From the NCBI GenBank assembly GCA_965222075.1, contig OZ244937.1, positions 352,001-416,000 of the forward strand: DNA of 64,000 nucleotides, read 5' to 3'. Below, one piece after another: positions 46,321-63,406 of the stretch. Source of the DNA: Candidatus Latescibacterota bacterium (lineage in GTDB: Bacteria > Latescibacterota > UBA2968 > GCA-2709665). Position numbers and translations under genes: made by a program. Position 1 is the first letter of the stretch, and each line of letters opens with the position of its first letter. Below the pieces are notes generated by a model that saw only the letters and a program-made list of their open reading frames with translations, ran no database searches and was not told where the DNA came from.

Positions 46321-46327
46321 GGAACAT

Positions 46328-46475
46328 GGATAGACAGGATAGACAGGATAGACAGGATAGACAGGATAGACAGGATAGACAGGATAGACAGGATAGACAG
46401 GATAGACAGGATAGACAGGATAGATAGGATAGACAGGATAGATAGGATAGACAGGATAGACAGGATAGACAGGAT
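46328..46475 (+). repeat. 9-bp tandem repeat (GGATAGACA)x16.4; expanded left arm of the palindromic element
   Basis: Period-9 array; units 11 and 13 are GGATAGATA variants. Confidence 0.97.
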
Positions 46476-46481
46476 GAGAAG

Positions 46482-46862
46482 ATGCTGCACGCGAGGCTGA
46501 CTCGCTCGATTATCGGGTGCGCGTTTGAGGTGATCAATGAGCTTGGGAGCGGGTTTTTGGAATCCGTATATGAGAAGGCGATGATGGTTGCTCTATCCGA
46601 TGTCGGAGTTTCCTTTGAGGTCCAAAAGCCCATCGGAGTGAGTTTTCGTGGAAAGCCCGTTGGCGATTTCTACGCGGATATTCTTGTCGAAGACAAAGTG
46701 ATCGTCGAACTCAAAGCGGTGAAGGCTCTGGCGCCAGAGCATGAAGCCCAGGTCATCAACTATTTGAATGCGACCGGCGTCGAGGTCGGACTGCTGATCA
46801 ACTTCGGGAGTCCGAGACTGGAATTCAAACGCTTTACACGGAGTAAGAATAAACATGGATAG
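46482..46862 (+). CDS. GxxExxY family PD-(D/E)XK-like protein
   Basis: LGSGFLESVYE (GxxExxY), ADILVEDKVIVELKA, QVINYL, GLLINFG. Confidence 0.93.
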   Translation: MLHARLTRSIIGCAFEVINELGSGFLESVYEKAMMVALSDVGVSFEVQKPIGVSFRGKPVGDFYADILVEDKVIVELKAVKALAPEHEAQVINYLNATGVEVGLLINFGSPRLEFKRFTRSKNKHG

Positions 46863-46912
46863 ACAGGATGGACAGGATAGAATCAACGGCCTGAAATCCT
46901 GTTCATCCATGT
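46853..46912. repeat. Palindromic element copy after GxxExxY
   Basis: ACATGGATAGACAGGATGGACAGGAT...CCTGAAATCCTGTTCATCCATGT. Confidence 0.85.
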
Positions 46913-46936
46913 GAATAAATCAGAAGACGGGAGTTA

Positions 46937-47161
46937 GTGATGACCAGACAGTTGACAGCAATTATCGAACGCGAAGGCGATGGCTACGTCGCCCTCTGCG
47001 CTGAGTTGGACATTGCGAGTCAGGGGGCAACCGTGGCTGAGGCTCGGGAAAATTTGAAGGAGGCATTGGAGTTGTTTTTCGAGACGGCTTCAGCCACCGA
47101 AATTCAGCAGCGGCTGCACGAGGAAGTGTACGTAACGCAGGTGGAGGTCGCAGTTGGCTAA
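46937..47161 (+). CDS. hicB: HicB family antitoxin (short)
   Basis: EREGDGYVALC.ELDIASQG.T..EA..NL.EA. Confidence 0.88.
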   Translation: MMTRQLTAIIEREGDGYVALCAELDIASQGATVAEARENLKEALELFFETASATEIQQRLHEEVYVTQVEVAVG

Positions 47162-47372
47162 ACTCCGGGTATTATCAGGCCGGGAAGCCTGCGGAATACT
47201 TGCGAATCACGGATTTATCGAGGTCCGGCGCAGGGGTAGCCATGTAATCATGCAAAAGGTCGAGCCCAGCAGCACCATCACCGTCCCGGTTCCTGACCAC
47301 AGGGAACTGCGGATGGGAACGCTGATGTCAATCATTAGGCAATCGGGGCTGCCCAGAACATTGTTCGAGTAA
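47154..47372 (+). CDS. hicA: HicA family toxin
   Basis: GF.EVRRRGSH, VPVPDH.EL..GTL.SIIRQSG. Confidence 0.88.
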   Translation: MAKLRVLSGREACGILANHGFIEVRRRGSHVIMQKVEPSSTITVPVPDHRELRMGTLMSIIRQSGLPRTLFE

Positions 47373-47420
47373 AGTACATCATTTGCCGTTGTACACGCAC
47401 AATTCGTCATTGATGCGCAG

Positions 47421-47471
47421 ATGGAGGGGAAGATACGGGCGGTCATTGGGCGGGTGTGGGGTGACGAGTAA
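47421..47471 (+). pseudogene. Orphan 3' tail of an hsdS-like gene
   Basis: Translates MEGKIRAVIGRVWGDE*, matching FEKKIRDVVGRVWG at the end of HsdM-S (50043-50084). Confidence 0.7.
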
Positions 47472-47542
47472 CATGGATACACAGGATAGGCAGGATGAAA
47501 AACTGAAAATCCTGAAATCCTGTTCATCCTGTCCATCCATGT
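47471..47542. repeat. Palindromic element, empty copy
   Basis: ACATGGATACACAGGATAGGCAGGAT...ATCCTGAAATCCTGTTCATCCTGTCCATCCATGT. Confidence 0.9.
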
Positions 47543-47558
47543 AAATTAAGGAGATCGC

Positions 47559-50126
47559 ATGCTTGATGCCGAAACGAAACGCCGCATCGACACCGCCCGC
47601 GATATTCTCGTGGGCAAGGTGCCCGACCCCAAGAGCCAGGTTGAGCAGATTACCATCGCGCTGATCTACAAGTTTATGGACGATATGGATGCCGGGAGCG
47701 AGGAATTCGGGGGTGTGCGCAAGTTCTTTGCCGGCGAGTTCGCCCGCTTCGGCTGGGCCAGGCTGATGCGCTCCGGCCTGGGCGGGCACGAGATGCTCAA
47801 TCTCTACGCTGAGGCCATTGTCAAGATGCCGGAGAACCCCGGCATTCCGGCGCTTTTCCGGGATATTTTCCAGAATGCCTTTTTGCCCTACCGCGATCCG
47901 GAGACTCTGCGCGCTTTCTTGAAGGTCATCGACGAGTTCACCTACGATCACAGCGAACGGCTGGGCGACGCCTTTGAGTATCTGCTTTCGGTCCTGGGCT
48001 CGCAGGGTGACGCCGGGCAGTTCCGCACGCCGCGCCATATTATCGATTTTATCGTGTCGGTGGTCGATCCGAAGAAGGAAGAGACTGTGCTCGACCCGGC
48101 CTGCGGTACCGCCGGGTTCCTGATTTCGTCGTACAAGCATATTCTGGAGGCCAATACCGACGATGAGGGGAACAGTACGCTCACGCCGGACGAGAGAGGC
48201 AAACTCGCGGCCAATTTCAAGGGCTATGATATTTCGCCGGATATGGTGCGCCTGTCGCTGGTGAATCTGTACCTGCACGGCTTTGCCGATCCGCATATCT
48301 TTGAATACGACACGCTGACGAGCGAGGATCGCTGGAACGAGTATGCCGATGTGATTTTGGCCAATCCGCCGTTTATGTCGCCCAAGGGCGGCATCCGCCC
48401 GCACAGCCGCTTTTCGGTGAAGTCCAAACGCAGCGAAGTGCTGTTCGTGGACTATATGGCGGAGCATCTGACGCCTGCGGGGCGCGCCGGTATTATTGTG
48501 CCGGAGGGCATTATCTTTCAGAGCCAGAACGCCTATAAGCAGTTGCGCAAGGTGCTGGTGGAAAATTATCTGGTGGCCGTCATTTCGTTGCCGGCGGGCG
48601 TGTTTCAGCCCTATTCAGGGGTCAAGACGTCCATTCTGCTGCTGGACAGGGCGCTGGCGAAAAAGACGGACCGCATCGCGTTTTTCAAGGTGGAAAACGA
48701 TGGGTTTGATCTGGGGGCGCAGCGGCGGGAGATTGCGGAGAACGACTTGCCGCAGGTGACGGAGAAGCTTGGCGAATATCTGGGGCGGCTACGGGCGGGC
48801 GAGTCGGTGTACGACTTCGAGCCGGCGCCGACCGCTCGTGTGGCGGAACCTGGGGTGGAGTATACAACGGACAGTTTTCAACCCACATTTGGGCTGATCG
48901 CCGATAAGGAGAAGATTGCGGCGGGTGGGGAGTATAATCTGAGTGGGGAGCGGTATCGGACTGAACACTCCATCCGATCCGATTGGCCTTCTGTGAGAGT
49001 GAGAGATGTATTCAAGAAGGCGGAGGAAACTGTCTTGCCTATGTCGCTCCGTGGTCCCGTGAGCTACGTAGGGCTTAAAAATATTACGCAGACCAGCGGT
49101 CAACTATCAGGGAATATCACGACCGATAATCCAGCAGAGATCAAGAGTCTGAAGAATGTCTTCTGTCCCGGCGACATTCTCTATGGAAAGCTACGGCCGA
49201 ATCTCAACAAGGTCTGGCTCTCGGATCGGAAGGGAATCTGCTCGACAGATATATTCGTTGTTCGGCCTCTGGATGAACGTGTTTTACCAGCCTTGTACGC
49301 CTACGTCTTTCGAAGTGGTCACTTCAATGATGCAGTCTTGGGCCAACTCAAAGGTGCACAGCTTCCGCGTATAGGTTGGCAGTCGTTTGCAAACCTCGAA
49401 ATCCCCCTACCGCCGCTGGAGGTGCAGCGGGAGATTGTGGCGGAGATAGAGGGGTATCAGCGGGTGATAGACGGGGCGCGGGCGGTGATTGACAACTACC
49501 GGCCGCATATTGTGGTTGATCCTGAGTGGCCGGCAAAAGAGCTATCTGAAGTCGCAATCAGAATCACTGACGACACCCATACAACTCCAAATTACACAGA
49601 CTCAGGGATTCCTTTTCTCCGGGTCACTGATATTACTAAAAGCAACGCATCAAAAAAGTTTATCTCTGAAGAGGAACATATGAAGCTCATTAAAAGGTGC
49701 CATCCACAGAAGGGAGATGTCCTATATTCAAAAAATGGCACAATCGGAGTTGCGAAGGTAATTGATTGGGAAGGGGATTTCAGCATCTTCGTAAGCCTTG
49801 CTCTGATCAAGCCGCGTCGAGAATTAGTAAACTCTCGTTATCTTGAGTATTTCCTGAATTCGGACACCGCTTATGCACAGGCTACATCTCGATCAAAATC
49901 CGGAACGGTGACTAACCTTCACTTGGTAGATATCAAGACAATTAAAATCCCTCTTCCACCTCTAATCAAGCAGCAAGAAGTCGTCGCCGAGATCGAAGCC
50001 GAGCAGGCACTGGTGGATGCTAACCGGGAGTTGATTGAGCGATTTGAGAAGAAGATACGGGATGTGGTGGGGCGGGTGTGGGGGTTAAGTACCATGGATA
50101 AACAGGATAGACAGGATGAAAACTGA
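47559..50126 (+). CDS. Fused type I N6-adenine methyltransferase and specificity subunit (HsdM-HsdS)
   Basis: GQFRTPR, DPACGTAGFL, NPPF; two lower-GC TRDs each followed by IPLPPL..Q.E.VAEIE. Confidence 0.92.
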   Translation: MLDAETKRRIDTARDILVGKVPDPKSQVEQITIALIYKFMDDMDAGSEEFGGVRKFFAGEFARFGWARLMRSGLGGHEMLNLYAEAIVKMPENPGIPALFRDIFQNAFLPYRDPETLRAFLKVIDEFTYDHSERLGDAFEYLLSVLGSQGDAGQFRTPRHIIDFIVSVVDPKKEETVLDPACGTAGFLISSYKHILEANTDDEGNSTLTPDERGKLAANFKGYDISPDMVRLSLVNLYLHGFADPHIFEYDTLTSEDRWNEYADVILANPPFMSPKGGIRPHSRFSVKSKRSEVLFVDYMAEHLTPAGRAGIIVPEGIIFQSQNAYKQLRKVLVENYLVAVISLPAGVFQPYSGVKTSILLLDRALAKKTDRIAFFKVENDGFDLGAQRREIAENDLPQVTEKLGEYLGRLRAGESVYDFEPAPTARVAEPGVEYTTDSFQPTFGLIADKEKIAAGGEYNLSGERYRTEHSIRSDWPSVRVRDVFKKAEETVLPMSLRGPVSYVGLKNITQTSGQLSGNITTDNPAEIKSLKNVFCPGDILYGKLRPNLNKVWLSDRKGICSTDIFVVRPLDERVLPALYAYVFRSGHFNDAVLGQLKGAQLPRIGWQSFANLEIPLPPLEVQREIVAEIEGYQRVIDGARAVIDNYRPHIVVDPEWPAKELSEVAIRITDDTHTTPNYTDSGIPFLRVTDITKSNASKKFISEEEHMKLIKRCHPQKGDVLYSKNGTIGVAKVIDWEGDFSIFVSLALIKPRRELVNSRYLEYFLNSDTAYAQATSRSKSGTVTNLHLVDIKTIKIPLPPLIKQQEVVAEIEAEQALVDANRELIERFEKKIRDVVGRVWGLSTMDKQDRQDEN

Positions 50127-50162
50127 AAACCCTGAAATTCTGTTCATCCTGTCTATCCACTT
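50092..50162. repeat. Palindromic element, empty copy overlapping hsdMS stop
   Basis: CATGGATAAACAGGATAGACAGGAT...TCTGTTCATCCTGTCTATCCA. Confidence 0.9.
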
Positions 50163-50275
50163 GAATAAAGTAGATAAGAAAGGCCGGAGTCTGCGGTGAC
50201 TTGGCAGGCGACGGCGTATTGCATCCCTCTACATTCGGGGGGCCATTCGGGGCTCGTCGAGGAAAGGAGAGAACA

Positions 50276-51307
50276 ATGCTCTACAAGCTCAATGCTGATG
50301 ATATCGAATCAAGTACACCTATGGAGGTCAGAACGCCGGCAGATTTCAATCTAAAAGAACAGGACATAGAGAATTTCTTGAGATCTCGCCTCCATGAAGT
50401 CGTTTCTGAAGAGCAACTCATGCTGATCGGACAAGAACGTAAGATGCAAGAAGAGGCCGATTTGTTGGCTCTCGACAAGGATGGAGTGCTTTACATTTTT
50501 GAGTTGAAGCGGTGGCAATCCAGCCAGGAGAACATACTCCAAGTAATGAGATATGGACAGATTTTTGGAAGATACACCTATGAAGAATTGCAAGATTTTG
50601 CAAAGCGACAGCAGAAACTGGACGGCAGTCTAAAAGAAAAACACAAGGACCATTTCGATCTTGATAACGAACTGTCAGATTCGAAGTTTAATACAGATCA
50701 GGTTTTTGTATTGGTCACAAATGGCACAGATAAAGATACGATCTCTGCCGTGAATTTCTGGTCTAAAAAAGGTGTAAATATCAAATGTTCCCCCTACCGA
50801 ATATATGATATAAACGGAGAGCCGTACATTCAGTTTGACACGTACAATCTGGACGATGAGGTTCTTCCCGATGAGAATACCGGTTTCTTCATCGTCAACA
50901 CAAACAAAACGTACATGTCGCATGCTTGGAAGGATATGCTACATGACCGTTCAACGGGCAAGGCTTCCGCGTATTACGACCGAAAAAGCTCTGTCTCCCG
51001 GATTTCAAAAGGTTCCCGTGTATACCTCTACCATACCGGAGTCGGTGTTATAGCCTGTGGCACAGCAAGTTCCGGATATAGGAAAACGGATTACCAAGGT
51101 GATGTAAACGAAGAGTTTTACGTCCCATTAAAATTTGTAGAATTTGGCTGGGCCTTAGATGAAAGTGAATGGGAGGATAGGGCACCGAAAGCATGGGAAA
51201 TTAATAGAAAATGCAATTCAAGCCATCGATTTAGACAGACCGTGTTTGCAATCACCAAGGAGATGGCAGATACAATTGACTCCATATTTTCAGAGAAGAA
51301 GGAGTAA
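50276..51307 (+). CDS. NucS-like PD-(D/E)XK endonuclease with a possible C-terminal EVE/PUA-like domain
   Basis: E..IE, ADLLALD....IFELKR, QVMRY; C-terminal IVNTN...KGSRVYLYHTGVGVIACG; low GC; AAGGAG RBS. Confidence 0.65.
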   Translation: MLYKLNADDIESSTPMEVRTPADFNLKEQDIENFLRSRLHEVVSEEQLMLIGQERKMQEEADLLALDKDGVLYIFELKRWQSSQENILQVMRYGQIFGRYTYEELQDFAKRQQKLDGSLKEKHKDHFDLDNELSDSKFNTDQVFVLVTNGTDKDTISAVNFWSKKGVNIKCSPYRIYDINGEPYIQFDTYNLDDEVLPDENTGFFIVNTNKTYMSHAWKDMLHDRSTGKASAYYDRKSSVSRISKGSRVYLYHTGVGVIACGTASSGYRKTDYQGDVNEEFYVPLKFVEFGWALDESEWEDRAPKAWEINRKCNSSHRFRQTVFAITKEMADTIDSIFSEKKE

Positions 51308-51406
51308 CAGGTGGAAGAGCAGCGTTTGGAGTTTTGAGGCCGAAGGACAACGGTCTGTAAACCGTGTACCAGCACCGCATCGAACACATTCGTAGCTCTT
51401 GATTAG

Positions 51407-51673
51407 CTATCGCACCCAGGGACCGGCATCCAGCGGCCCGTTTTCATCGCTGGCGGGAGCGCCGACCGCTTGTAACGGCGCACCGGGCTGCTGGTCGGAC
51501 TCAATTTCCGGATACTCCATCCACTGGCGTCCATCCAGAGTATTCCCGCCCGATTTGGGTGTACGCCCGCCCCATTGCTTGAAGAAGAAGGCGACGCGCT
51601 GGGCCTGACACCGGTCGCGCAATTCATGTACCCACTCTGCCTGAATTGGACGGGCTCTCGGCCCGCTCTCCTC
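51407..51673 (-). pseudogene. 3' fragment of a DUF5131 gene
   Basis: 51466-51673 closely matches 60775-60983 (FFFKQWGGRTPK..G.TLDGRQW.EYP). Confidence 0.88.
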
Positions 51674-51799
51674 ACAGGCAACTCAGATCTTGCTTCGACC
51701 TCTCTCAGGGTTTGTCAGGTGAACTCAGACAAAATTTACCGGCCCCTTCACTAATAAAGGGTAGATCGTCAGGACCTCACACATACGAGGAGAAGAGAG

Positions 51800-52327
51800 A
51801 TGCGAAAGTTCACACTATGCATCCTGTTTTACTGCTTAGGTGCCGTCTCTACATGCTTAAGCGCTGAAGAAACAACGAAGAAAGCGGTTTCTTTGAAAGG
51901 CATCACCGCGCGGCGCTTCACACATCGCTCGATCATCGTCAAGTTCACCACTTCACCTGTGAAGTTTAAGTTTGAACGGGCTGGTGATGAGTTCAACGGC
52001 TTCTCTGCTAACACAAATGCCAGGCATATGTGGATTAACCTGGAAGGACAACCTCTCACCAAGGTAATCCTGTTCTATGCTGTCTCAACAGATCACGCCG
52101 TCAATATGGTCAATACGGGAGTGGCGCTGGACCTCCTCAATCACCTCTTCCCCGATTGGGAGGCAAGAGGTAAATGGTATGCCAACGCGCTGCAATCAGT
52201 CATCCAGTCCAGAGAGCTGAACGACGTGAGACGTAAGATGAAGACCAGGAACGGACTGCGCATCGAGCTGGAATACCACAAGATGGCGGGGCTACTAAGG
52301 CTATATGTAAGTCGTATAACCTATTGA
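51800..52327 (+). CDS. Hypothetical secreted protein
   Basis: 175 aa, GAGGAG RBS, N-terminal signal-peptide-like MRKFTLCILFYCLGAVSTCLSA. Confidence 0.6.
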   Translation: MRKFTLCILFYCLGAVSTCLSAEETTKKAVSLKGITARRFTHRSIIVKFTTSPVKFKFERAGDEFNGFSANTNARHMWINLEGQPLTKVILFYAVSTDHAVNMVNTGVALDLLNHLFPDWEARGKWYANALQSVIQSRELNDVRRKMKTRNGLRIELEYHKMAGLLRLYVSRITY

Positions 52328-52338
52328 AGGATAACGCC

Positions 52339-52674
52339 ATGCAACAGATCCAGATGGTAGACCTCCACAATGGATTGCAGGGACTCCACGGCTTTACCCG
52401 TGATAAGTTCACAGAGACCGACAAGCAGATCAAGGAGCTGCGAACTCATGTCGACCAGCGCTTTGCAGAGACCGACAAGCAGATCAAGGAGCTGCGAACT
52501 CATGTCGATCAGAGATTCGCAGAAACAGATCAGAAGATCGAAGAGTTCCAAAATCAGGTTGACCAGCGCTTTGAACAGGTTGATCGACGCCTGGGATGCA
52601 TAGAAAGCGACCTGAGTTCTGTCAAGAGCGACCTGAAAGCTATCAAGGATGCGCTTTCAATTATAAGGATATGA
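52339..52674 (+). CDS. Coiled-coil repeat protein
   Basis: Three 18-aa repeats (F.ETD..I.E....VDQR); AAGGA RBS. Confidence 0.7.
   Translation: MQQIQMVDLHNGLQGLHGFTRDKFTETDKQIKELRTHVDQRFAETDKQIKELRTHVDQRFAETDQKIEEFQNQVDQRFEQVDRRLGCIESDLSSVKSDLKAIKDALSIIRI
52408..52569 (+). repeat. 54-bp coding tandem repeat x3
   Basis: Units at 52408, 52462, 52516; third is diverged. Confidence 0.85.
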
Positions 52675-52750
52675 GTGGGGGTACAATACCACGCAGAGAG
52701 TCGCCTGCCAACATTCCCGGATCAGTTGACAGGTGGAAGGGAGAGATAGG

Positions 52751-52921
52751 ATGAGAGGAAAACTGGAGATAGTCCAGGTGCTGGAGAAGTATCCAGACGG
52801 TACAACGATTGATGTGTTGATCACAGAGATGGGCTTGACAGACAGACTGGTGCGTAGTCGCATCAACGCTGCCCGTGCTCGCGGGTACAGCATCGTGAAT
52901 GTGGGATACAAAACGTTCTAG
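52751..52921 (+). CDS. Small hypothetical protein, possibly winged-HTH-like
   Basis: 56 aa, G.TID.L...MGLT...VRSRI..AR..GY.I pattern. Confidence 0.4.
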   Translation: MRGKLEIVQVLEKYPDGTTIDVLITEMGLTDRLVRSRINAARARGYSIVNVGYKTF

Positions 52922-52990
52922 CTACAGCCGGGGATCTGGCGGGGCAGGAGGACGCTATGAGGCGGCGTCCTTTGGGGGGACGTCAAACCG

Positions 52991-53039
52991 AAACAGGCCA
53001 AGAAGGGACGAGTTTCCACTTGACTTGGCCTGTTTTTTT
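52991..53039 (+). terminator. Inverted repeat / probable terminator
   Basis: AAACAGGCCAAG-N21-CTTGGCCTGTTT followed by a T run. Confidence 0.5.
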
Positions 53040-53328: not shown

Positions 53329-53351
53329 GGGCGGATGTGGGGGGACGAGAA

Positions 53352-53422: not shown

Positions 53423-53446
53423 GAATAAATCAGAAGACGGGAACTG

Positions 53447-53882: not shown

Positions 53883-53930
53883 AGTACATCATTTGCCGTT
53901 GTCCACGCACAATTCGTCATTGATGCGCAG

Positions 53931-54081: not shown

Positions 54082-57000
54082 ATGAGACACATTCCCACAT
54101 CCTTGTATATTGACACGGAGGTGTTCAAGCGCCAGAGACTGCGTTTGGACACAAGTGTCTTTAACTCGCTGAAAGACACATTTGTCAAGGGAGGACTTCG
54201 CTTGTTGGTTCCGGCTATGATGGAACGCGAGCTTCTTCGGCACTATCGGAGGCAGGCTGAAGAATGTGCGAACGCGGTTCATAAGGCACAACAGAAGCAC
54301 CCTATGCCATTCTTGGGAATGTGGACGCCACGGCCTAAAAACGAGGTTATAGATGAATGTTTCAATGAGCTTATATCGCAGTGGGAGCAGTTCAAATCAC
54401 ACTTCACTGTTGAGGAGTTGCCACTTGTTGGGGACCTCGGCCGCGTCGTGAATTGGTATTTTTCGGTTGAGCCACCATTTTCTACAGATAAGAAGAAGGA
54501 ATTTCCCGACGCTTTTATTCTGAGCACCCTGGAAGCATATCACAATGACCACAAGGCAAACATCGCCGTGGTGAGTGGGGATGGAGACTTTGGTAAAGCC
54601 TGTAAGATTCGGCGTTACATACAGCATTTTGACAGTCTCGAAAAATATGCTGACGCGTTCAAACCCGAACTCACAAGGGAGCGATATTTAATCGAGGAGC
54701 CTGTCGATCCAACTCAACCGATTGTTACCGAAGATTTGCAGGAACTAAAAGCCATATTAGGTCGAGGAGTTGGTGCTACTCAGGTCGAGATTGATCGAGT
54801 GATAAAGCTATTACAACGTCGTGGCGAGAACTATCGCTATTTCTTTTATAATGCAGATGAGCCGATGTGGCTTCCTCGTCTGAAGGCCAGTGGTTTGTTC
54901 GACAATCCACCAGAAGTTGAACGAACTGAAGATGGAAGTTTCAAGATTCCTGATTGGCCACCGATTTATTATCTCGAGAGAGTTTTTGGATCAGATCGTG
55001 AGGAAGTCCTTACCATATTGGAGGGACTACCTGAAAGCACGAACCCACGTGTGCTTGAGGAAGTTATGACCATAGTTCTGAAGTCGGACGATACGAATGA
55101 CCTGATGCGTCTCTCTGAGAAGATTCTGGCCTTTGTAGACCATTCTCGATGGGGCTATGAGAAAATCATACAACTGGTTAATAGGCTCTCGCTTATGGAC
55201 AGGCGTTTCGGCGGGTTTTCAGAATCAGTTTTACTCAAGGTAGTTGAGTTTCAACTCGACCAGAAAGCCGAAGATAAGCAGGCCCGCCGCAGAGCGAACC
55301 CCGAAGACTGGACAACTTTACTTGACCCACAACCACGCTTTGACGAGTGGGAATATAATCAAATACTGGAAAAAGGTGTCCGACCTTTGTCGGAGCGGGA
55401 GCCTTACCCAACCGCCCGAATATTGATCGATGCCACCTCGACCATGATACGTCTCACATTCCATCAGGGCGAACTTGAAGAGAGCAGCGGTAACGATCCT
55501 ACCATTTTTGAGTGGCGGCGCGTGAACGAACCTGGCAGTGATTACCCAGACTCGAAGGAGATTCTTGTTCATGCGCTCACGTTCGTCTGCGAAAAAGTCT
55601 ATGAGAAGTCACCGGAGTCCGTGGCGGCGCTGGATCAAGCGTTGCGAAACCAGCGTTGGGCCATTTTCACACGTATCCGCCAGCATCTTTACACGCTGCA
55701 TCCAAATGAACAAACCAGGCCCTGGATTCGTGAGATGATCCTTACTTATGAAGACTACGACAAATGGGAGCACCTCTTTGAGTTTCAGCGCATGATTCGC
55801 CTCGCATGTGAAAATTTCGGCGCCAATTTGCTCACCAAGGCCGAAAAGGAGCGGAGATTTGAGGCTATCCTTAGCGGGCCATCGGAACAGCGTTTTCGGG
55901 ACCGGATGGGAGACCGTTTTACCGAAGCATCATTTGAAGAACGAAAACGCTCTTTCCACAGAATGCAACTGCGTCCATTTGCTTCAGTGCTCTTCGGCAA
56001 ATACGGTGAATACTTTGAAGAGCTAAAAGCGGAAGAAGAAAAGCCGATTACGGATAACGACTATGCGCCTTATAAGTTGGAGGATGAGAGGATAGGAGAG
56101 AAGCGCAGTCCGAAGCCGGCTGAAGAACTGGAGAAAATGTCAGATGAGGAACTTCTTTCGTTCTTGAACGAATGGGAAAATGTCCATTATGATCCTGACG
56201 AGTGGTGGGTGGACATCAATTTCGAAGGGCTTGCTTGGGCGTTTCAGGCGATCTTCAAAAAGCTTATCGTACCTGACGAATCACGGTTACAGTTCTGGTG
56301 CGAAAATCGGGAACGATTGGAGCGACCTATCTATGTGAGGGTGATGGTGTCTGCCATTCACGAGCAAGTAAAACTCAAGCAATTCGACAAGCTCGATCAA
56401 TGGTTCGATTTCTGCGAATGGGTTTTGTCCCATCCAGACCGATCGGAAGAGGAAGGTGTCAACCACGGCGATGAATCCAGAGAGCATCCGGACTGGCATA
56501 GGTCACGTCGAGCGGTGGGCGATTTTGTCAAGATGTGTCTGACAGAGGAGGTCAACGTCCCAATCTCAGTGCGCCAGCGTCTCGCCTCTTTGTTGGATAA
56601 GCTTTGCACTCAATATGACAGGGGATTGGATGATGACGAGCCTGTTCTTCTGAACCGCGACGACCAGCTAACCGAATCGATCAACAATACACGAGGCCGG
56701 GCGCTGGATCATCTGGTCGATTTCGGCTATTGGGTGCGCCGCCAACTGGAGGACGATCAAGCGGATACGCCTGAGGTTTTCGCCATCCTCGACAAGCGAC
56801 TCGGTTCGGAATGCGAGCACGCACTGAAACTGCCTGAATATGCCCTTCTTGGGCTGCATTACATCCGTATATTCGTTCTGAATCGGGAGTGGGCAGTTCG
56901 ACATAAGAGTGACGTTCTTCCGCAAGAGAACCTGTGGGCATGGGTGGAGGCCTTTGGGAATTTTCTTAAATATAACCGGCCTTATAGGCCAATCTTTGAT

Positions 57001-57678
57001 ATTTTTCGGGGCGACATGGAGTTTGCGCTTGAAAATATTGATAAGTTCAAGATGGACAGCCATAGAACAACAAATCTTACTGATACGCTCGGAGAACACT
57101 TATTTACCTACTATCTCTGGGAAGTTTATCCGCTTACAGGAGATGACAGCCTGCTGGAACGATTTTACGAAAAGACAGAGGAAGACAGAGGTCGCTGGTC
57201 TCACTTGTTTGATTATGCAGGCCGCACCTTGGAAAACAGCGGCAAGCAACTGGAAGCAGGCCTTAAACAGAGAATCATCGACTTCTTCGACTGGCGCTTT
57301 GGGAAGAAGGAGCCATCCGAACTTAAAAAGTTTACGTATTGGCTGGGAGCAGAGTGCCTGGACGCGGAATGGCGCCTGACTTCGTTCTCGAAGATCCTTG
57401 ATGTATGCGGATCAGAGGACATACAAATATACACTCAGATAGATACCCTGCAGGGGATGGTTGAGGACCATACGGCGCTGGTCGTAGAGTGCTTTGCCAA
57501 GCTGACTGATTCCGTTGTCAAGAATGACAGCACCATTTACATTCGAACTGATAAAGCGAAACCCATCCTCCGAGCCGGACTGAATAGCAATGATGTCACT
57601 GTGCGAGAAAATGCTGAACGGGCTCGCGAGAACCTACTTCGAGGCGGGCGCTTTGATTTATTGGACGAGGAAGATTGA
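54082..57678 (+). CDS. Large protein with N-terminal PIN-like (DUF4935-type) domain and ~1000 aa helical region
   Basis: LYIDTEVF, ERELLRH, FPDAFI, VVSGDGDF acidic PIN pattern; no P-loop seen; low GC. Confidence 0.7.
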   Translation: MRHIPTSLYIDTEVFKRQRLRLDTSVFNSLKDTFVKGGLRLLVPAMMERELLRHYRRQAEECANAVHKAQQKHPMPFLGMWTPRPKNEVIDECFNELISQWEQFKSHFTVEELPLVGDLGRVVNWYFSVEPPFSTDKKKEFPDAFILSTLEAYHNDHKANIAVVSGDGDFGKACKIRRYIQHFDSLEKYADAFKPELTRERYLIEEPVDPTQPIVTEDLQELKAILGRGVGATQVEIDRVIKLLQRRGENYRYFFYNADEPMWLPRLKASGLFDNPPEVERTEDGSFKIPDWPPIYYLERVFGSDREEVLTILEGLPESTNPRVLEEVMTIVLKSDDTNDLMRLSEKILAFVDHSRWGYEKIIQLVNRLSLMDRRFGGFSESVLLKVVEFQLDQKAEDKQARRRANPEDWTTLLDPQPRFDEWEYNQILEKGVRPLSEREPYPTARILIDATSTMIRLTFHQGELEESSGNDPTIFEWRRVNEPGSDYPDSKEILVHALTFVCEKVYEKSPESVAALDQALRNQRWAIFTRIRQHLYTLHPNEQTRPWIREMILTYEDYDKWEHLFEFQRMIRLACENFGANLLTKAEKERRFEAILSGPSEQRFRDRMGDRFTEASFEERKRSFHRMQLRPFASVLFGKYGEYFEELKAEEEKPITDNDYAPYKLEDERIGEKRSPKPAEELEKMSDEELLSFLNEWENVHYDPDEWWVDINFEGLAWAFQAIFKKLIVPDESRLQFWCENRERLERPIYVRVMVSAIHEQVKLKQFDKLDQWFDFCEWVLSHPDRSEEEGVNHGDESREHPDWHRSRRAVGDFVKMCLTEEVNVPISVRQRLASLLDKLCTQYDRGLDDDEPVLLNRDDQLTESINNTRGRALDHLVDFGYWVRRQLEDDQADTPEVFAILDKRLGSECEHALKLPEYALLGLHYIRIFVLNREWAVRHKSDVLPQENLWAWVEAFGNFLKYNRPYRPIFDIFRGDMEFALENIDKFKMDSHRTTNLTDTLGEHLFTYYLWEVYPLTGDDSLLERFYEKTEEDRGRWSHLFDYAGRTLENSGKQLEAGLKQRIIDFFDWRFGKKEPSELKKFTYWLGAECLDAEWRLTSFSKILDVCGSEDIQIYTQIDTLQGMVEDHTALVVECFAKLTDSVVKNDSTIYIRTDKAKPILRAGLNSNDVTVRENAERARENLLRGGRFDLLDEED

Positions 57679-57805
57679 CACCATCTGTTCATCAACTACG
57701 AGAACCACACATTGGAGCTTCCCTGAGGACCGGATTGGAGTGTCAAATCCGATATTCTACATCGATGGGCGCTTAATACTCCCGGCAGCGGTTGGTGATG
57801 GGTAA

Positions 57806-58432
57806 GCGGCGGCCGCCTTGCACCCGATCGGGACGCCGGTGGGGGCGGCCGCCCCCACCGGCCACCGGCCTAATGTGATCCACCAACGGCAACAGTTGCG
57901 TCACATTCGCTTGATGCGCGCCCGTCACCGTCGCGGCTAACGGCACCCCTTGGGCATCGGTCATCACGTGGTGTTTGCTACCCGGTTTGCCCCCCCCCAA
58001 CGGCACGCACCGAGGCACTATCGACCACCGCCCGAGACCAATCAATCTGGTCGGCTGCACGTAGGTGGTTCAACAAGATATGATGCACTTTCTTCCACAC
58101 CCCGGCTTGTTGCCAATCGCCCAAGCGACGCCAACAGGTCATCCCACTGCCGCACCCCATTTCTGGGGGCAAATACTCCCACGGGATACCTGTTTTGAGC
58201 ACAAAGACAATGCCGGTTAGCACCCTACGGTTATCTAACCGGTGCCGACCGCCTTTCGGACGCGTGACATGGACGGGTAAAACCGGTTCTATCAAGGCCC
58301 ATAATCCCTCGTCGAGAACGAGCTTCGCCATGAATACACCTCCATATCAAGCCGGTAAACGCTATACCCAAAAGACGACGATGAAGATAAGGCACACTAT
58401 ACCCAACACCAAGGTTTTGTTAGAGCCTCTAA
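57806..58432 (-). mobile_element. Degenerate IS5-family element (orfA 57978-58331 plus truncated orfB)
   Basis: LW..IEP, VLKTGIPW..LP.E.GCGSG.TCWRR..W...G, DSASVRA, G9 run, GSKHH..TDAQG.PL; left end TAGAGGCTCTAACAAAA; orfB stops before the second catalytic Asp. Confidence 0.88.
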
Positions 58433-58573
58433 CAATTCTTCTTGACAAACAAACGAAATTTGTTCATAAAGGTTGACAGACCCCTGTAACATCCGTTACC
58501 GGATTGCCACAATACACCTTGGCAAACGGGCCTCTGTTGTTTTATGATTTTCTGTTAAAGAAAGGAAAACTCC

Positions 58574-60424
58574 ATGGAAAAATTATCAAACAAGATTGAT
58601 GCTAGGGACCGAACGGTTTCCGAAGTCCTTAACGAAAAGAAGTATACGGTAGACTATTTCCAACGTGAGTTTAATTGGGAAGCCAAGCATATTGAACAAT
58701 TGGTCACTGACTTAACCTCGGCATTTCTAAGAGAATACACTCCTGGTGATAGTCGCGAGAAAGGTGAGAAATATAACAGTTATTATCTGGGTCCGTTTGT
58801 CATAAGTGAGCAAGAGAGTACCCGAATCATCATTGATGGGCAACAACGTCTGACCTCCCTAACGTTATTGCTTATGTATCTGAATAATCTTCAAAAGAAA
58901 TATGGCTTTGAAGAAAACATCAAACCACTGTTCCTATCCGATTATCGAGGCCAAGAGTCATTCAATATTCAAGTTGATGAACGAATTGAATGTATGGATC
59001 AGTTGTACAAATGTGGAGAATATCATACAAGAGAAGGTGATGATCCGTCTGCGATCAATATGGCAGAGAGATACATCGATATTGTGCAAGCGTTTCCGGA
59101 AGAAGAAATTAAAGAAGATAACTTGCTGTCGTTTATTGACTGGATCAAATACAACGTCATATTGGTTGAGATCGTAGCATATTCAGATGACAACGCATAT
59201 ACAATATTTGAAACTATGAATGATCGTGGCCTGAATTTGACCCCGACAGAAATGTTAAAAGGATTCGTCTTGTCTCGGTTTCAAGATTCAACTAAAAGAC
59301 AGCGGGCTAATGAGACCTGGAAGAAGGCTGTCCAAGATGTGCAAAGCTACGATAGAGATGAGGATCAACGCTTCTTCCAAGCATGGCTGCGAGGTCAATA
59401 TGCAAAGACCATTCGCCAAGCACGTGAAGGTTCACAGAATGAGGATTTTGAAAGAATAGGTACACGTTTCCATAGTTGGGTACGTGGCAATCTTGCCAAG
59501 ATGGAACTATATGAGGAACGACCGGATAGTTTCGAGGAATTTGTTAATGTACGCCTGAAGTTTTTCTTAAAGGCTTATTTGAAAATACTGGATTCTAATA
59601 GCACGCTCTCGCGGCAGTTAGAGCATGTCCACTATATTCACCAATGGGGTATTGCATCCTCACTCAGCTACCCACTTTTGCTTGCACCCCTAAAGGTGGA
59701 TGATGACGATCAGTTGGTTGACAAGAAGATGAATACTGTTGCGAAATATATCGAAGCCTTTGTAGTGCGTCGTTCTGTGAATTTCCGAAAATTCGCGGCG
59801 AGTTCGATTCGCTATACAATGTATTCGTTGGTAAAAAAGATTCGCAATAAGGACCTTGATGAGTTAAGAAATATCCTGACCAATTCCCTTGCTGATATGG
59901 AAGAAAAATTCGACGGTATGTCTCCTTTTCGGTTGCATGGGCAAAACCGAAAGTTCGTGAAATTTTTGTTGTCTCGAATTACGGCGTTCATAGAACAGAA
60001 CTCTGGGATGAACACTACGTTTGAGACGTACTATCATTCTCCCAACGGAAAACCCTTTCAGATAGAACATATTTGGGCTGATAAATTCGATGAACATCGT
60101 GATGAATTCGAGCAAAAAACAGATTTTGACGAATACAGGAATCGTATTGGCGATCTAGTGCTCCTGCCACAAGGCACGAATCAATCGTTTAAAGCAAGAC
60201 CATATTGTGAGAAATTAAAGCATTACGTCAAGGAAAACCTGCTGGTAAGATCACTATGTCCTCTGTCATACGAGAGCGGTCCGAATTTTCAATCAATGAT
60301 TCAAAATCTGGGCTTGCCTTTTGAGTCGCATGAGCAATTCAAGAAGGGCGATATTGTTAAGCGTCAAACATTGTATCAACGCATTTGTGAAGTTATATGG
60401 GATGATTTCAATAGGGAATATTGA
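58574..60424 (+). CDS. GmrSD-like DUF262/DUF1524 modification-dependent nuclease
   Basis: FQREFNW, IIDGQQRLTS, IFETMNDRG; HNH-like IEHIW...NRIGDLVLL...N; low GC. Confidence 0.9.
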   Translation: MEKLSNKIDARDRTVSEVLNEKKYTVDYFQREFNWEAKHIEQLVTDLTSAFLREYTPGDSREKGEKYNSYYLGPFVISEQESTRIIIDGQQRLTSLTLLLMYLNNLQKKYGFEENIKPLFLSDYRGQESFNIQVDERIECMDQLYKCGEYHTREGDDPSAINMAERYIDIVQAFPEEEIKEDNLLSFIDWIKYNVILVEIVAYSDDNAYTIFETMNDRGLNLTPTEMLKGFVLSRFQDSTKRQRANETWKKAVQDVQSYDRDEDQRFFQAWLRGQYAKTIRQAREGSQNEDFERIGTRFHSWVRGNLAKMELYEERPDSFEEFVNVRLKFFLKAYLKILDSNSTLSRQLEHVHYIHQWGIASSLSYPLLLAPLKVDDDDQLVDKKMNTVAKYIEAFVVRRSVNFRKFAASSIRYTMYSLVKKIRNKDLDELRNILTNSLADMEEKFDGMSPFRLHGQNRKFVKFLLSRITAFIEQNSGMNTTFETYYHSPNGKPFQIEHIWADKFDEHRDEFEQKTDFDEYRNRIGDLVLLPQGTNQSFKARPYCEKLKHYVKENLLVRSLCPLSYESGPNFQSMIQNLGLPFESHEQFKKGDIVKRQTLYQRICEVIWDDFNREY

Positions 60425-60730
60425 CACTTGCCCTATATGCCCCGACAAGGGCCAACTGTAAGTTGACGGGTGTTTTGGAAGCTTCCACCGTCACGGGTTG
60501 TGTCCTACCGCCCATGGAAATGTGAAGAACATATCTTGATAGACTTAGCAGAACTCTTTTCTAAACAGTGGCTTGAAAAAATAAAATTTCGAGCGATGTT
60601 GAAAATGCCTATGATTACAGTACCTCAGATAGAACAGGTTTGTAATAACAGTGAGACTGGCAAGAAAAAAATCGGCCAGATTTTACTCGCGGCATCTCAA
60701 GCTGTCTCAGTCAGATTACCATCAGAGGTT

Positions 60731-61531
60731 TTACAGCAGTTTCGCAGTTGGATAGAATGAATATCCTAAGACAGCCGCTTGTAACGGCGCACCGGGCTGC
60801 TGATCGGACTCAATTTCCGGATACTCCAGCCACTGGCGTCCATCCAGCGTATTCCCGCCCGCTTTGGGTGTACGCCCGCCCCATTGTTTGAAGAAGAAGG
60901 CCACGCGCTGGTCCTGACACTGGTCGCGCAATTCACGTACCCACTCTGTCTGCACCGGACGGGCTCCCGGCCCGCTTTCCCCTCCGGCAATTACCCAGTG
61001 AATATCCTCCAGATCCACGGTGCCCATGGGACCGAGCAAGGGCTCGAATGAGACGAAGCGGACGGTAGCGTTGGTCTGTTTCAGGTGCCGGAGGCGTGTC
61101 AAGGCTGCGTGGTTTTCGATGGAGACGCCGAGCCAGATGTGCGGGGGAGCAGCCTGGTCCCGGTAGCGGGCCTGGACGAAACGGCGCATCAGCGAGCTGC
61201 GCTTGGTGAGCACCTGGTAGATGTGCCAATCGGCGCGTTCCATGGTGTCGAATACGCGCTCGATGTACCCGGTGGGAATGTCCTTGTGGAAGAGATCGCT
61301 CATCGAGTTGACGAAGATGAGCTGAGGACGCCGCCAGTGCGTGGGCTGTTCGAGGCGGTCGGGGCGAAGGGTCAGATCAAAGCCGGTCTCGAAAGGGTGT
61401 CCCTCGACGCCTCGGAAGCGCTCGGAAAGGCGCTCGGCATAGCAATGGTCGCAACCGGCGCTGACCTTTGTGCAGCCGGTGACCGGGTTCCAGGTGCTGT
61501 TGGTCCACTCAATGGCGCTTTTGTGAGACAT
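60731..61531 (-). CDS. DUF5131 (phage Gp37/Gp68 family) radical-SAM-like protein
   Basis: [59 protein letters not shown]. Confidence 0.92.
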   Translation of the reverse strand: MSHKSAIEWTNSTWNPVTGCTKVSAGCDHCYAERLSERFRGVEGHPFETGFDLTLRPDRLEQPTHWRRPQLIFVNSMSDLFHKDIPTGYIERVFDTMERADWHIYQVLTKRSSLMRRFVQARYRDQAAPPHIWLGVSIENHAALTRLRHLKQTNATVRFVSFEPLLGPMGTVDLEDIHWVIAGGESGPGARPVQTEWVRELRDQCQDQRVAFFFKQWGGRTPKAGGNTLDGRQWLEYPEIESDQQPGAPLQAAVLGYSFYPTAKLL

Positions 61532-61570
61532 GAGAGCCCCCTGCGTAACCAAAAAATACCACTGCACATA

Positions 61571-61599
61571 AGTATAGCATTTCCCCGGCCAAATGTCAA
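61571..61599 (-). promoter_or_regulatory. Sigma70 promoter of DUF5131 gene
   Basis: Minus strand TTGACA-N17-TATACT with TG extension. Confidence 0.75.
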
Positions 61600-61621
61600 G
61601 GCGGCGAGTGGGTGGGGGGAA

Positions 61622-61644
61622 AGATGGATAAAGAGGATAGATAG
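61622..61644. repeat. Left-arm half copy of the palindromic element
   Basis: AGATGGATAAAGAGGATAGATAG after GTGGGGGGAA, parallel to the 53338-53374 junction. Confidence 0.55.
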
Positions 61645-61708
61645 AAAGACACCAATCATGGGCTTGATACCCAAGCCTAAAACCGTCCACTAAACCGGGG
61701 TAACTCCA

Positions 61709-62191
61709 ATGCCAATGAAGGAGCTTCTTCTTTTCAAAGTCTTGTTGCCCATAGCGAAAGTTTATTGGAAGATTTTTCGCCCAAAAACGTTCGGCGTTAA
61801 AGGAATAATACCAAATCACAATGACGATCGGCAAGTACTATTGATACGGAACTCATATGGTAATAGGCAGCTATGGAATATTCCAGGGGGGGGCTATAGT
61901 CCAATGCGAGAAATGCCGGATAGCGCTATTGAGCGAGAAATCAGGGAAGAATTATCTATAACACCATTTAAGATTCAAGAGCTAGGAGAATATATCACTG
62001 ATGTAGAGGGGAAACGTGACACCGTTACCATATTTCTCTGCCGTATAACTTCAGCACACTTCAACGTCAATCGTGAAATTGCTGAATTTACATGGGTTTC
62101 GATAAATAATCTCGACCAGATTCGAAATATTGCACGCGTAGCTTCATACGGAATAGAACTCTATAAACAAACTCTTACTAGTCCTAAATAA
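61709..62191 (+). CDS. NUDIX hydrolase
   Basis: WNIPGGG....E....A..REIREEL Nudix box. Confidence 0.85.
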   Translation: MPMKELLLFKVLLPIAKVYWKIFRPKTFGVKGIIPNHNDDRQVLLIRNSYGNRQLWNIPGGGYSPMREMPDSAIEREIREELSITPFKIQELGEYITDVEGKRDTVTIFLCRITSAHFNVNREIAEFTWVSINNLDQIRNIARVASYGIELYKQTLTSPK

Positions 62192-62353
62192 GCGAGTTTT
62201 GATCATCGGATCAGTATTTGGTCATGCACAACGAGCTTCGAATAGGATATTTCGCTATATTGAGAACAGAGACACGACGCACGACTATCTCGAAATCAGA
62301 GGGATAGATCTCAAGAATGAGAAAACGCCAAATTCAACGGGGTCGCGTCTGAA

Positions 62354-63118
62354 ATGCCAATTTCATATCCGATTCTTGAGTTCGACGAGGAACGGGAAGC
62401 TGTCATCGAGCCGTCGAGAGCGATCAAGCATCGCGACGTCCCGGAATACTGCGTCATCTGCTACTTTCGGGAGACAATCGAACGTGTGAGTGAACAACTG
62501 GCGCTTAGACCATTACGACCGATCGAATCTGAGATGGAAGATATGCGTCTCTACTCTGGAGAATACGATGGACAGACGGTGGCGATTCTTCCCGGCGTGG
62601 TAGGAGCCCCTCTGGCCGTGGGTTGCCTGGAGGAAGTGATCGCTAGGGGTGGACGCAAATTCATCGTTTGCGGAAGCGCGGGTGTTCTCGATCGGTCCAT
62701 CGCAAGCGGCCATATCGTTGTCCCGACGTCTGCTTTAAGGGACGAAGGCACATCGTATCACTACCTGCCGCCAAGCCGGCAGGTCGAGCCGACGCCGGAA
62801 GCCGTCAAAGCGATCATAGCGTCTCTCAAAGAGCACGGATACGGTTACGTCGAAGGCAAGACCTGGACAACGGACGCGTTTTATCGAGAGACCCGAGCAA
62901 AGGTAGCAAAGCGCCGTGATGAAGGATGCATTACGGTTGAAATGGAAGCGGCTGCGTTATTTGCGGTCGCTCGATTTCGCGGTGTTCAATTGGCGCAACT
63001 GCTCTACGGGTCGGACGATGTCGGCGGTGCCGAGTGGGACCCCAGGGATATGGGAAAAGAGATCTCTGTCAGGGAAGCGCTTTTCTGGCTGGCGTTGAAC
63101 GCATGTCTCAGACTGTGA
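62354..63118 (+). CDS. Nucleoside phosphorylase (PNP/UDP family)
   Basis: [36 protein letters not shown]. Confidence 0.9.
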
Positions 63119-63135
63119 TGGTCTGACTTCCGTTA

Positions 63136-63358
63136 TCGAAAGGGTGTCCTTCGACGCCGCGGAAGCGCTCGGAAAGGCGCTCGGCATAGCAATGGTCGCA
63201 ACCGGCGCTGACCTTTGTGCAGCCGGTAACGGGGTTCCAGGTGCTGTTGGTCCACTCGATGGCGCTTTTGTGAGACATGAGAGCCCCCTGCGTAACCAAA
63301 ATTATACTGAACATAAGTATAGTATTTTTTCAGCCAAATGTCAAGGCGGCGAGTGGGT
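63136..63358 (-). pseudogene. 5' fragment of DUF5131 gene with its promoter (63316-63344)
   Basis: Copy of 61389-61612; TTGACA-N17-TATACT retained; ORF truncated after GHPF. Confidence 0.9.
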
Positions 63359-63374
63359 GAGTGTGGGGGGAAAC

Positions 63375-63406
63375 ACTGAAACCCCTGAAATCCTGTTCAT
63401 CCATGT
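63375..63406. repeat. Right-arm half copy of the palindromic element
   Basis: ACTGAAACCCCTGAAATCCTGTTCATCCATGT after GTGTGGGGGG. Confidence 0.75.

Follow-up and report, generated by a model that had tools for sequence, protein, structure and literature searches.

A GxxExxY nuclease gene between palindromic repeats in a Latescibacterota defence island, and a putative REPtron-like pairing of nuclease genes and hairpins in other phyla

We analyzed a stretch of 64,000 nucleotides (hereafter, the window; G000:C1:352001–416000, contig OZ244937.1) from the single-contig 5.36-Mb genome of a Candidatus Latescibacterota bacterium (genome G000, 59% G+C), in which a gene of the GxxExxY family (PF13366/TIGR04256) lies between inverted arms that also occur nearby as gene-less hairpins. 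Our favored reading, held at about even probability, is that a widespread two-part element is present in the window as one "filled" copy and several "empty" ones. The element would resemble the REPtron, i.e., a RAYT transposase gene with its repetitive extragenic palindromes (REP, REPIN), but with a PD-(D/E)XK nuclease instead of a Y1 transposase. Such arms flank GxxExxY genes in many phyla in clear excess over control sequences, covary with the protein, are specific to their cognate genomes, and alternate with empty and absent states at orthologous sites.

The filled unit and its hairpins in the window

The element begins 3 nt after the stop codon of hsdR (43792–46320, plus strand), which encodes a type I restriction subunit (Pfam ResIII/HSDR_N, PADLOC REase_I). 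Its left arm (46324–46475, plus strand) is composed of a terminal unit ACATGGAT starting at 46324 and an expanded array of the 9-bp unit GGATAGACA, for which Tandem Repeats Finder reported 16.4 copies with 97% matches at 46328–46475. The GxxExxY open reading frame (ORF) follows at 46482–46862 on the plus strand and encodes 126 amino acids, its assignment being based on profiles, motif residues, an AlphaFold2 model and structural neighbors. An ATG at 46326–46328 is in the frame of this ORF, and the frame is closed off by two TAG variants of the repeat unit (46425–46427 and 46443–46445). The array with these in-frame TAG units shows slippage and decay of the upstream part. The stop codon of the ORF (TAG, 46860–46862) is supplied by the left arm of the next hairpin, a complete 60-nt structure at 46853–46912 (plus strand; pattern match, DNA fold −13.4 kcal/mol, z −4.2), whose right arm ATCCTGTTCATCCATGT doubles as the right terminus of the filled unit.

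A first-pass annotation of the window had described a unit with inverted termini at 46324 and 46912, arms of 9-bp repeats, gene-less hairpins at 46853, 47471, 50092 and 53352, and half copies at 61622 and 63375, and the present analysis confirmed this description with nearly single-base precision. The right terminus at 46912 is present as described; since the sequence 3' of the gene is a complete hairpin, this terminus belongs to that hairpin and is thus common to an empty copy.

The pattern ACATGGAT-N40-70-ATCCATGT matched the window twice, at 46853–46912 and 47471–47542, and never in 100 shuffled sequences; with the gap widened to 20–120 nt, it matched the whole genome three times. The hairpins at 50092–50160 and 53352–53420 are slightly diverged, and these and the two half copies were found by direct reading. 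DNA folding of the four hairpins, on either strand (eight strands in all), gave energies of −12.8 to −17.1 kcal/mol and z scores of −4.2 to −6.7, and for each strand none of 200 shuffled sequences was as stable. The folds consist of 7–8-bp helices separated by 2×2 internal loops. No T run follows any of the four hairpins, and a terminator scan called none of them. Five copies have a conserved G-rich box on the 5' side and GAATAAA on the 3' side. The G-rich box (GGGYGGRTGTGGGG..GACGAG) is located at 47445–47470, 50066–50091, 53326–53351, 61594–61621 and 63350–63374, and a similar GGGGGACGGG box lies ahead of left arms in the Dehalococcoidia-titled genome G171 (L147, L151–L155).

A profile built from seven copies found ten plus-strand sites in the 5.36-Mb genome at E<0.001, nine of which are at window coordinates 46.8–80.5 kb within a 34-kb low-G+C defence island that therefore extends past the window end. 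The tenth site, at genome position 1475523, lies between two co-oriented genes. Consistent with the first-pass annotation, which had noticed no copy in the core 38 kb, there was no profile site at this threshold at window positions 1–46300.

The same genome has one other GxxExxY gene, at 2982335–2982673, with CAGGAT-rich repeats before it and ATCCTG motifs after it. At this locus (2982030–2983090; L033:7030–8090), a CAGGAT-rich tandem duplication of ~137 bp is found upstream. Downstream of the GxxExxY gene, the 3' end of the upstream gene (..LYxLTxEE..*) recurs in two copies that are displaced and diverged, as if each successive insertion carried a replacement gene end.

Arms flank GxxExxY genes in many phyla

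We collected 30 PF13366 loci from relatives and 80 from named genome records of many phyla, whose taxa are given here as titled. As the score of a locus, we took the best local alignment of the upstream 200 nt with the reverse-complemented downstream 200 nt, and the threshold was set at the 99th percentile of 391 windows shifted by 1.2–3 kb. Arms above the threshold were found at 67 of the 100 scorable GxxExxY loci versus 4 of the 391 shifted windows (median scores 33.5 versus 18), and at 4 of 76 other ORFs of 90–160 amino acids in the same loci. At some of the loci that lack arms by score, the gene lies between complete hairpins instead. The pairing of a GxxExxY gene with a palindrome that was first noticed in the window is general and recurs across phyla.

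The arm cores are short tandem units, including ACAGGAT, CACGGAT, CACAGAT, CGCAGAT, CGCAAAT, CGCCGAT, CACGAAG and CACAAAG, and the arms often have a distinct terminal unit. Unit geometry was counted over the 65 loci that have both arms and enough flanking sequence. The median unit spans 535 bp. In 32 loci, the start codon is inside the left arm or follows it by at most 15 nt; the right arm starts within 15 nt of the gene stop in 30, and in 36 loci a co-oriented ORF of at least 100 codons ends inside the arm or no more than 15 nt before it. The upstream neighbor is co-oriented with the GxxExxY gene in 78 of 86 loci, and the downstream neighbor in 48 of 73. In locus L174, the GxxExxY start codon overlaps the stop codon of carA (ATGA) within the left arm.

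We considered a coding left arm as a general rule and rejected it: the frame of the gene is open throughout the arm in 17 of the 65 loci, the other two frames in 31 and 17, and an in-frame ATG within the arm is present in five loci. The rule holds only in part, being confined to a portion of the ACAGGAT clade (L003, L005, L034, L035, L037, L158), in which the ORF shares its frame with the ATG of the terminal ACATGGAT, so that an MD(x)QD(x)QDK tail is encoded by the left arm; the two TAG units close this frame in the window.

The GxxExxY protein

The protein from the window matches PF13366 (PDDEXK_3) with 144.6 bits (cut-off 22) and TIGR04256 (GxxExxY) with 146 bits (cut-off 35), and contains G24, E27, Y30, D66, E76, K78, Q90, Y94 and N107-F108-G109. 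Over 100 sequences, E27, Y30, D66, K78, Q90, Y94, N107 and F108 are invariant, and E76 and G109 are found in at least 90%, so that both the catalytic D..ExK and the GxxExxY motif are conserved. The AlphaFold2 model has a nuclease fold with a predicted local distance difference test score of 92.7, and its top neighbors by Foldseek are Cas4 SSO0001 (E 5e-5), lambda exonuclease, RecE, a splicing endonuclease and Hjc. Sequence comparison with solved structures gave insignificant matches only (2f8l, E 0.028; T7 endonuclease I, E 0.32–0.81).

The family is large, with 19,329 clusters at 50% identity and E≤1e-10. Many of its top matches are two-domain fusions in which one half lacks the catalytic residues. 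Fusions P0001, P0002, P0004, P0006 and P0008 have 250–277 amino acids, and P0002 and P0004 are among those with one half lacking D..ExK. These proteins look like covalent pseudo-dimers, and the presence of one degenerate half suggests that the working unit is dimeric. A homodimer prediction for the GxxExxY protein scored 0.00 and was not used.

PADLOC has no model for the GxxExxY family, and a table of one review lists PF13366/TIGR04256 as "Unknown" (PMC3424549). In the portion of a preprint that mentions GxxExxY (10.1101/2021.01.26.428298), the mention is incidental and has no bearing on hairpin pairing. A literature search, with subscription journals and supplements outside its scope, found no published description of a pairing between GxxExxY genes and hairpins.

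Arm types follow the protein and are specific to cognate genomes

The first-pass annotation had proposed to test whether the repeat unit covaries with GxxExxY phylogeny, and the arms were found to covary with the protein. Over 66 loci, the sharing of arm 6-mers rises from 0.04 for protein pairs below 40% identity to 0.31 at 60–70% and 0.36 above 70% (Spearman 0.33, reached by none of 999 permutations). The proteins closest to the one in the window (66–84% identity) share its ACATGGAT/ACAGGAT type of arm, and come from records with the titles Dehalococcoidia, Anaerolineae, Spirochaetota, Planctomycetia, Chloracidobacterium, Opitutales and Pedosphaera.

The window arm motif ACATGGATNNACAGGAT was counted with at most one mismatch in 168 genomes of the window's phylum. 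It has 16 matches in G000, 19–112 in all 15 genomes of the sister genus and 23 in G024, and two genomes of another family have ~25 matches each in the variant form ACAGGGAT; most other genomes of the phylum have 0–2, and a reversed-pattern control gave ~0. In the sister-genus genome G021, the matches are distributed around the whole chromosome with a dense cluster at the GxxExxY gene. In the sister genus, clusters of 5–25 hairpin motif matches (L135–L138; G006, G011, G015, G021) are interleaved with small ORFs, including a HicB-like protein, PIN/VapC and NUDIX, and most of the 20 ORFs scanned had no Pfam match. The tie to defence genes proposed in the first-pass annotation is not exclusive: the hairpin is dispersed around the chromosome in the sister genus, hairpins also occur between housekeeping-type genes, and in other genomes they are not tied to defence genes.

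Outside the phylum sample, five genomes with a close homologue have 176 (G171), 371 (G170), 41 (G169), 15 (G168) and 13 (G172) matches to GGATNNACAGGAT, versus 0–1 in reversed-pattern controls. Among the 61 genomes of the order of G171, the only motif-rich ones are G171 itself (176) and G194 (26), both of which have a motif-flanked GxxExxY gene, and 56 genomes in which no such gene was found have 0–6 matches. Other arm types are similarly specific: the CGCCGAT type has 129 matches in its own genome G234 versus 0–2 in four others, CACAGATGAACACAGAT has 116 in G236 versus 0, and GCCACGAAT has 14 in G241 versus 0–1; the CGC[A/G]GAT type has 56 matches in G235, and GAACACTGAT has 14 in G240. Read directly, paired plus- and minus-strand matches 40–110 nt apart are gene-less hairpins. 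The filled and empty copies of one genome have the same exact termini, ACATGGAT in the window's genome, TACCGGGAT in G171 and AACCACAGAT in G236. The number of PF13366 matches per genome, partial ones included, is between zero and six.

Filled, empty, scar and absent states at orthologous sites

A comparison of orthologous loci, which had been proposed as a check on the filled and empty forms, was made for 21 loci from the window's order at the junction of hsdR and hsdM (hsdR|hsdM), and all four states were found. The element is absent from L126, which has a 27-nt spacer; L124 and L129 have a short scar; and L130, L134 and L131 have a gene-less hairpin only. Ten junctions are filled, with three arm types: ACATGGAT/ACAGGAT in the window, L116 (where the gene is apparently frameshifted) and L117; GATCCACGAAG in L122, L123 and L128; and GCCACAAAAGG in L121, L125, L127 and L133. 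Among the remaining junctions, L120 has ACAGGAT arms around ~450 nt of other sequence, L132 has an array and a hairpin, and L118 and L119 are disrupted. L115 has four tandem copies of the hsdR 3' end plus hairpin, with a PF13366 match further downstream; these copies (genome G018) are mutually diverged, and each consists of ~25 nt of the hsdR 3' end and a GCCACAAAAGG-type hairpin with a ~150-nt loop.

In a second lineage, the element occupies one site in G168 and G233, beginning 1 nt past the upstream stop codon; the 451-bp unit is missing from G220, where an unrelated spacer of 67 bp is found. No target-site duplication was found at the three empty and one filled G236 copies examined, which are few sites.

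The solitary site in G000 (1475524–1475583) is an ACAGGAT-type hairpin at a housekeeping intergenic site. At the same site, the same-genus genome G001 (L178) has a remnant decayed to the loop and one right-arm unit, G004 (L179) has a hairpin of a different arm type (GCGGAT), and the nine sister-genus genomes that were read have other sequence. Thus, one site is re-used by different hairpin families.

Defence island setting and segmental repeats

The genes surrounding the element constitute a defence island, with type I restriction-modification, PDC-S11, a Dsr1-like protein of 1198 amino acids, GmrSD/HEC-06, DUF5131 (PDC-M41B) and NUDIX (PDC-S07) identified by PADLOC, and the G+C content falls from ~0.59 to 0.43–0.53 from 46 kb on. 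Downstream of the filled unit are hicB (46937–47161) and hicA (47154–47372), which form the first copy of a hairpin-hicBA segmental repeat (46937–47372, plus strand; Pfam HicA_toxin, UPF0150-like; BLAST). The next gene-less hairpin, of 72 nt (47471–47542, with its G-rich box 47445–47554, plus strand), lies 16 nt ahead of the start of an hsdM-hsdS fusion (47559–50126, plus strand; Pfam N6_Mtase and Methylase_S). The ORF of this fusion enters the third hairpin (with its box 50066–50174, plus strand; nhmmer E 9.6e-30, fold z −6.7), and its TGA stop codon (50124–50126) is within the left arm of that hairpin. The fourth hairpin (with its box 53326–53434, plus strand) lies beside a DDE transposase fragment on the minus strand (53050–53292), and is followed by the second copy of hicB and hicA (53447–53882, plus strand). 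The two half copies, both on the plus strand, are a G-rich box with a left arm at 61594–61650 (arm at 61622; weak nhmmer match, E 1.2) and a G-rich box with the loop and right arm at 63350–63418 (half copy at 63375; nhmmer E 7.4e-8). A DUF5131 N-terminal fragment is located at 63108–63314 on the minus strand. The IS5 relic and the DUF5131 relic of the first-pass annotation were both confirmed, as the DDE fragment and this DUF5131 fragment, respectively.

BLAST comparison showed that 46851–47461 and 53350–53971 are 94% identical over 622 bp. Further hairpin-hicB blocks are found at 71.8 and 80.4 kb, beyond the window, which are 96% and 92% identical, respectively, to the block at 53.35 kb and about 91% (90–91%) identical to that at 46.85 kb; in the 71.8-kb block, hicB lies between two hairpins and hicA is deleted. 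Four hairpin copies are thus part of a 350–620-bp hairpin-hicB(A) segmental repeat. Each half copy is preceded by a copy of a 232-bp repeat (61383–61614 and 63130–63359, 92% identity). This repeat is a DUF5131 5' fragment, and the region 61383–63418 appears to contain one hairpin split into a left arm (61594–61650) and a loop with right arm (63350–63418), with NUDIX and PNP/UDP phosphorylase genes between the halves.

The first-pass annotation had placed every copy at a junction between gene modules. All copies in the window are indeed intergenic or overlap the 3' end of a gene; since four copies, two of them beyond the window, belong to a segmental repeat, not all are independent junction marks. 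For the window, confinement to a low-G+C island together with the segmental repeats points to import and local duplication more than to recent activity. The hairpin family of G000, which is small and confined almost wholly to the island, was probably imported with it and multiplied partly by segmental duplication.

Two other repeats were noted. A 54-bp tandem repeat (3.0 copies, 80% matches) at 52412–52573 lies within a coiled-coil ORF (52324–52674). A different dispersed repeat of ~190–360 bp at L031:14320–14680 (window coordinates ~78.3–78.7 kb, beyond the window end) has more than 40 BLAST matches around the genome at 70–90% identity.

We also inspected contigs of mixed-community sequencing (four runs, region 44500–54500), which contain joints between the arms of different hairpins (e.g., 46349>46896, 46350>47515, 46878>47516 and 53678>53930). 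Nothing was drawn from these joints, because their sides are 21–41 letters long, mostly below 30, and the runs are mixed, so that they may come from other loci or organisms.

Comparison with known systems

The pairing resembles the REPtron as described in PMC3733652. In both cases, inverted copies of a palindromic repeat enclose a single small gene of nuclease type, tens to hundreds of further copies of the repeat are dispersed without a gene, and the repeat type is specific to the gene lineage. RAYT gene and repeat abundance are, according to the same source, only loosely correlated today, similar to the hairpins without a gene in G006 and G012, and upstream read-through expression has been proposed. 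The enzyme and the repeat differ. The protein here is a PD-(D/E)XK GxxExxY protein (PF13366) and not an HUH/Y1 enzyme, and the two Y1 transposase (PF01797) genes of the genome, at 2.07 and 3.02 Mb, have no hairpin match nearby. The arms consist of tandem 8–10-bp units that can expand to arrays, the hairpins measure 60–150 bp versus 20–40 bp, and no GTAG tag was noted in them. We regard the pairing as akin to REP/RAYT but distinct in its class of enzyme and in the construction of its repeats.

A likeness also exists to the intervening sequences of 23S rRNA, an example being the Coxiella sequence with its S23p protein, an ORF in a stem-loop that has been read as a selfish element (PMC4990558). 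In both, a small ORF is enclosed by a long stem within a host transcript. However, the element here lies between the protein genes hsdR and hicB in a region with no rRNA match, its ORF belongs to another family (PF05635 was not found in the window's genome), and it has dispersed gene-less copies.

Similar to pairs of miniature inverted-repeat transposable elements and insertion sequences, the gene-bearing copy shares its terminal inverted repeats with short gene-less copies that look like internal deletions. In contrast to such pairs, GxxExxY is the only ORF and neither a DDE nor another known transposase is present, the comparisons made at a few sites revealed no target-site duplication, and the whole arm, not its tip alone, is conserved and self-complementary.

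The core sites of integron attC elements are RYYYAAC/GTTRRRY. The hairpins are similar to attC in being imperfect palindromes of 60–140 bp between co-oriented cassettes that include toxin–antitoxin genes. Their termini ACATGGAT/ATCCATGT do not fit this core, and their copies are dispersed genome-wide in relatives. No integrase was seen beside the array, and none was searched for.

Discussion

At a probability just short of even, we propose that GxxExxY proteins are the nucleases dedicated to a second class of REPIN-like palindromes, one based on PD-(D/E)XK enzymes, in at least eight phyla as titled. Each lineage would read its own 7-bp core, tandem in both arms, and create, maintain or move tens to hundreds of gene-less hairpins, with the gene riding host operons by read-through and translational coupling. 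The filled unit is ~0.5 kb long and comprises a left arm of 2–5 tandem 8–10-bp units (16 in the window), a PD-(D/E)XK nuclease ORF of ~120 amino acids, and a right arm with the reverse-complementary sequence. Such a unit sits directly 3' of a co-oriented host gene, with its start codon in or beside the left arm, a position from which expression is probably by read-through and sometimes by translational coupling. The empty units are 60–150-bp hairpins with the arms and termini of the filled one. The nuclease, probably a dimer, may recognize arms of its own type, in hairpin or cruciform form or as a row of 7-bp cores, and cut at or near the termini, and this cutting would copy or maintain the gene-less hairpins in trans, as has been proposed for RAYT transposases and REP or REPIN sequences. 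Horizontal transfer of a filled unit could then seed a new hairpin family in the recipient. Nicking of the hairpins by the GxxExxY protein, suggested by the first-pass annotation, is an inference, and the shuffling of defence cassettes that it also suggested is a conjecture, its basis being the hairpin-bounded segmental repeats.

Several observations weigh against a REPtron-like element driven by its nuclease. Clear arms are lacking by score at 33 of the 100 loci, a further arm-like site within ±5 kb was found at only 10 of 44, and the counts overstate the support since related genomes are not independent. Segmental duplication accounts for much of the hairpin multiplicity in the window's genome. 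A protein at least 75% identical to that of the window is present in only three of the 15 sister-genus genomes, one copy being apparently frameshifted, and G006 and G012 keep their hairpins with no PF13366 match found in either, which means that the hairpins have no present dependence on a resident gene. The structural neighbors of the protein are generic PD-(D/E)XK nucleases (TM 0.5–0.6) that indicate no substrate. Finally, the site occupied in G168 and G233 shows no target-site duplication in comparison with G220, the spacer being replaced rather than cleanly interrupted.

In an alternative reading, the hairpins came first, as REP-like host repeats spread by other means, and GxxExxY would be a selfish homing-type gene targeting the loop of its cognate hairpin, cutting empty copies and being copied in by repair with the arms as homology. 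A filled unit would then be an invaded hairpin and not the parent of the empty ones. We consider this unlikely, even though hairpins far outnumber genes and occur in genomes in which no gene was found, different hairpin types are found at the same intergenic site in different genera, and remnants of one arm type lie beside another in L116, L120 and L131. Diverged copies of the upstream gene's 3' end also adjoin elements (L115, L116 and the second G000 locus), as co-converted flanks would. However, efficient homing would fill many copies per genome, which is at odds with the zero to six full or partial PF13366 matches, and in the Dehalococcoidia-titled order, richness in the motif is confined to precisely those two genomes that have the matching gene, a distribution that is better explained by seeding from a gene-bearing unit.

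A role at the RNA level seems rather improbable. The arms would pair in the read-through transcript like the stems of 23S rRNA intervening sequences, serving processing, stability or fold-back control of translation, with gene-less hairpins as operon punctuation and the nuclease acting elsewhere. The predominant co-orientation of the upstream gene (78 of 86 loci), the start codons in or near left arms (32 of 65), the ATGA overlap within the arm of L174, the host ORFs that end within left arms and the lack of an intrinsic-terminator signature are all consistent with such a role. However, over 66 loci the sense-strand mismatches comprise 84 G.T (G.U in RNA) and 92 A.C, which are equally common, and this symmetry gives no sign of selection on an RNA strand. 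On the same counts, we dropped the idea of bottom-strand folding, for which an excess of A.C on the sense strand, corresponding to G.T on the other strand, was expected. Rfam gave no match at E≤1 in 46000–64000 and none at the arms in 14 loci, and an RNA role leaves unexplained both the dispersal of tens of near-identical copies and the covariation of arms with the protein.

Mere co-accumulation of hairpins and small selfish ORFs in tolerant places such as gene 3' ends and islands, with import and local duplication in the window, is very unlikely and already disfavored: it agrees with the hairpin-hicB(A) blocks repeated at 92–96% identity (copy 1 versus the two beyond-window copies, 90–91%), the 232-bp repeat before both half copies, the G+C drop from 46 kb and the two Y1 transposase genes that could in principle move repeats, but not with arms at 67 of 100 GxxExxY ORFs versus 4 of 76 other small ORFs, the arm–protein covariation, the specificity of motifs to cognate genomes or the distance of both Y1 genes from any hairpin.

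If the REPtron-like reading is correct, the very common PF13366/TIGR04256 family would gain a function through a specific partner, its own flanking hairpin, and the REP/RAYT paradigm would have a non-HUH counterpart. It would explain a class of palindromes between genes and of 9-bp tandem arrays that genome annotation currently passes over, as well as host ORFs that end inside repeats, such as hsdMS in the window and carA in L174. The family would also be a source of small nucleases whose recognition units are simple and repeated.

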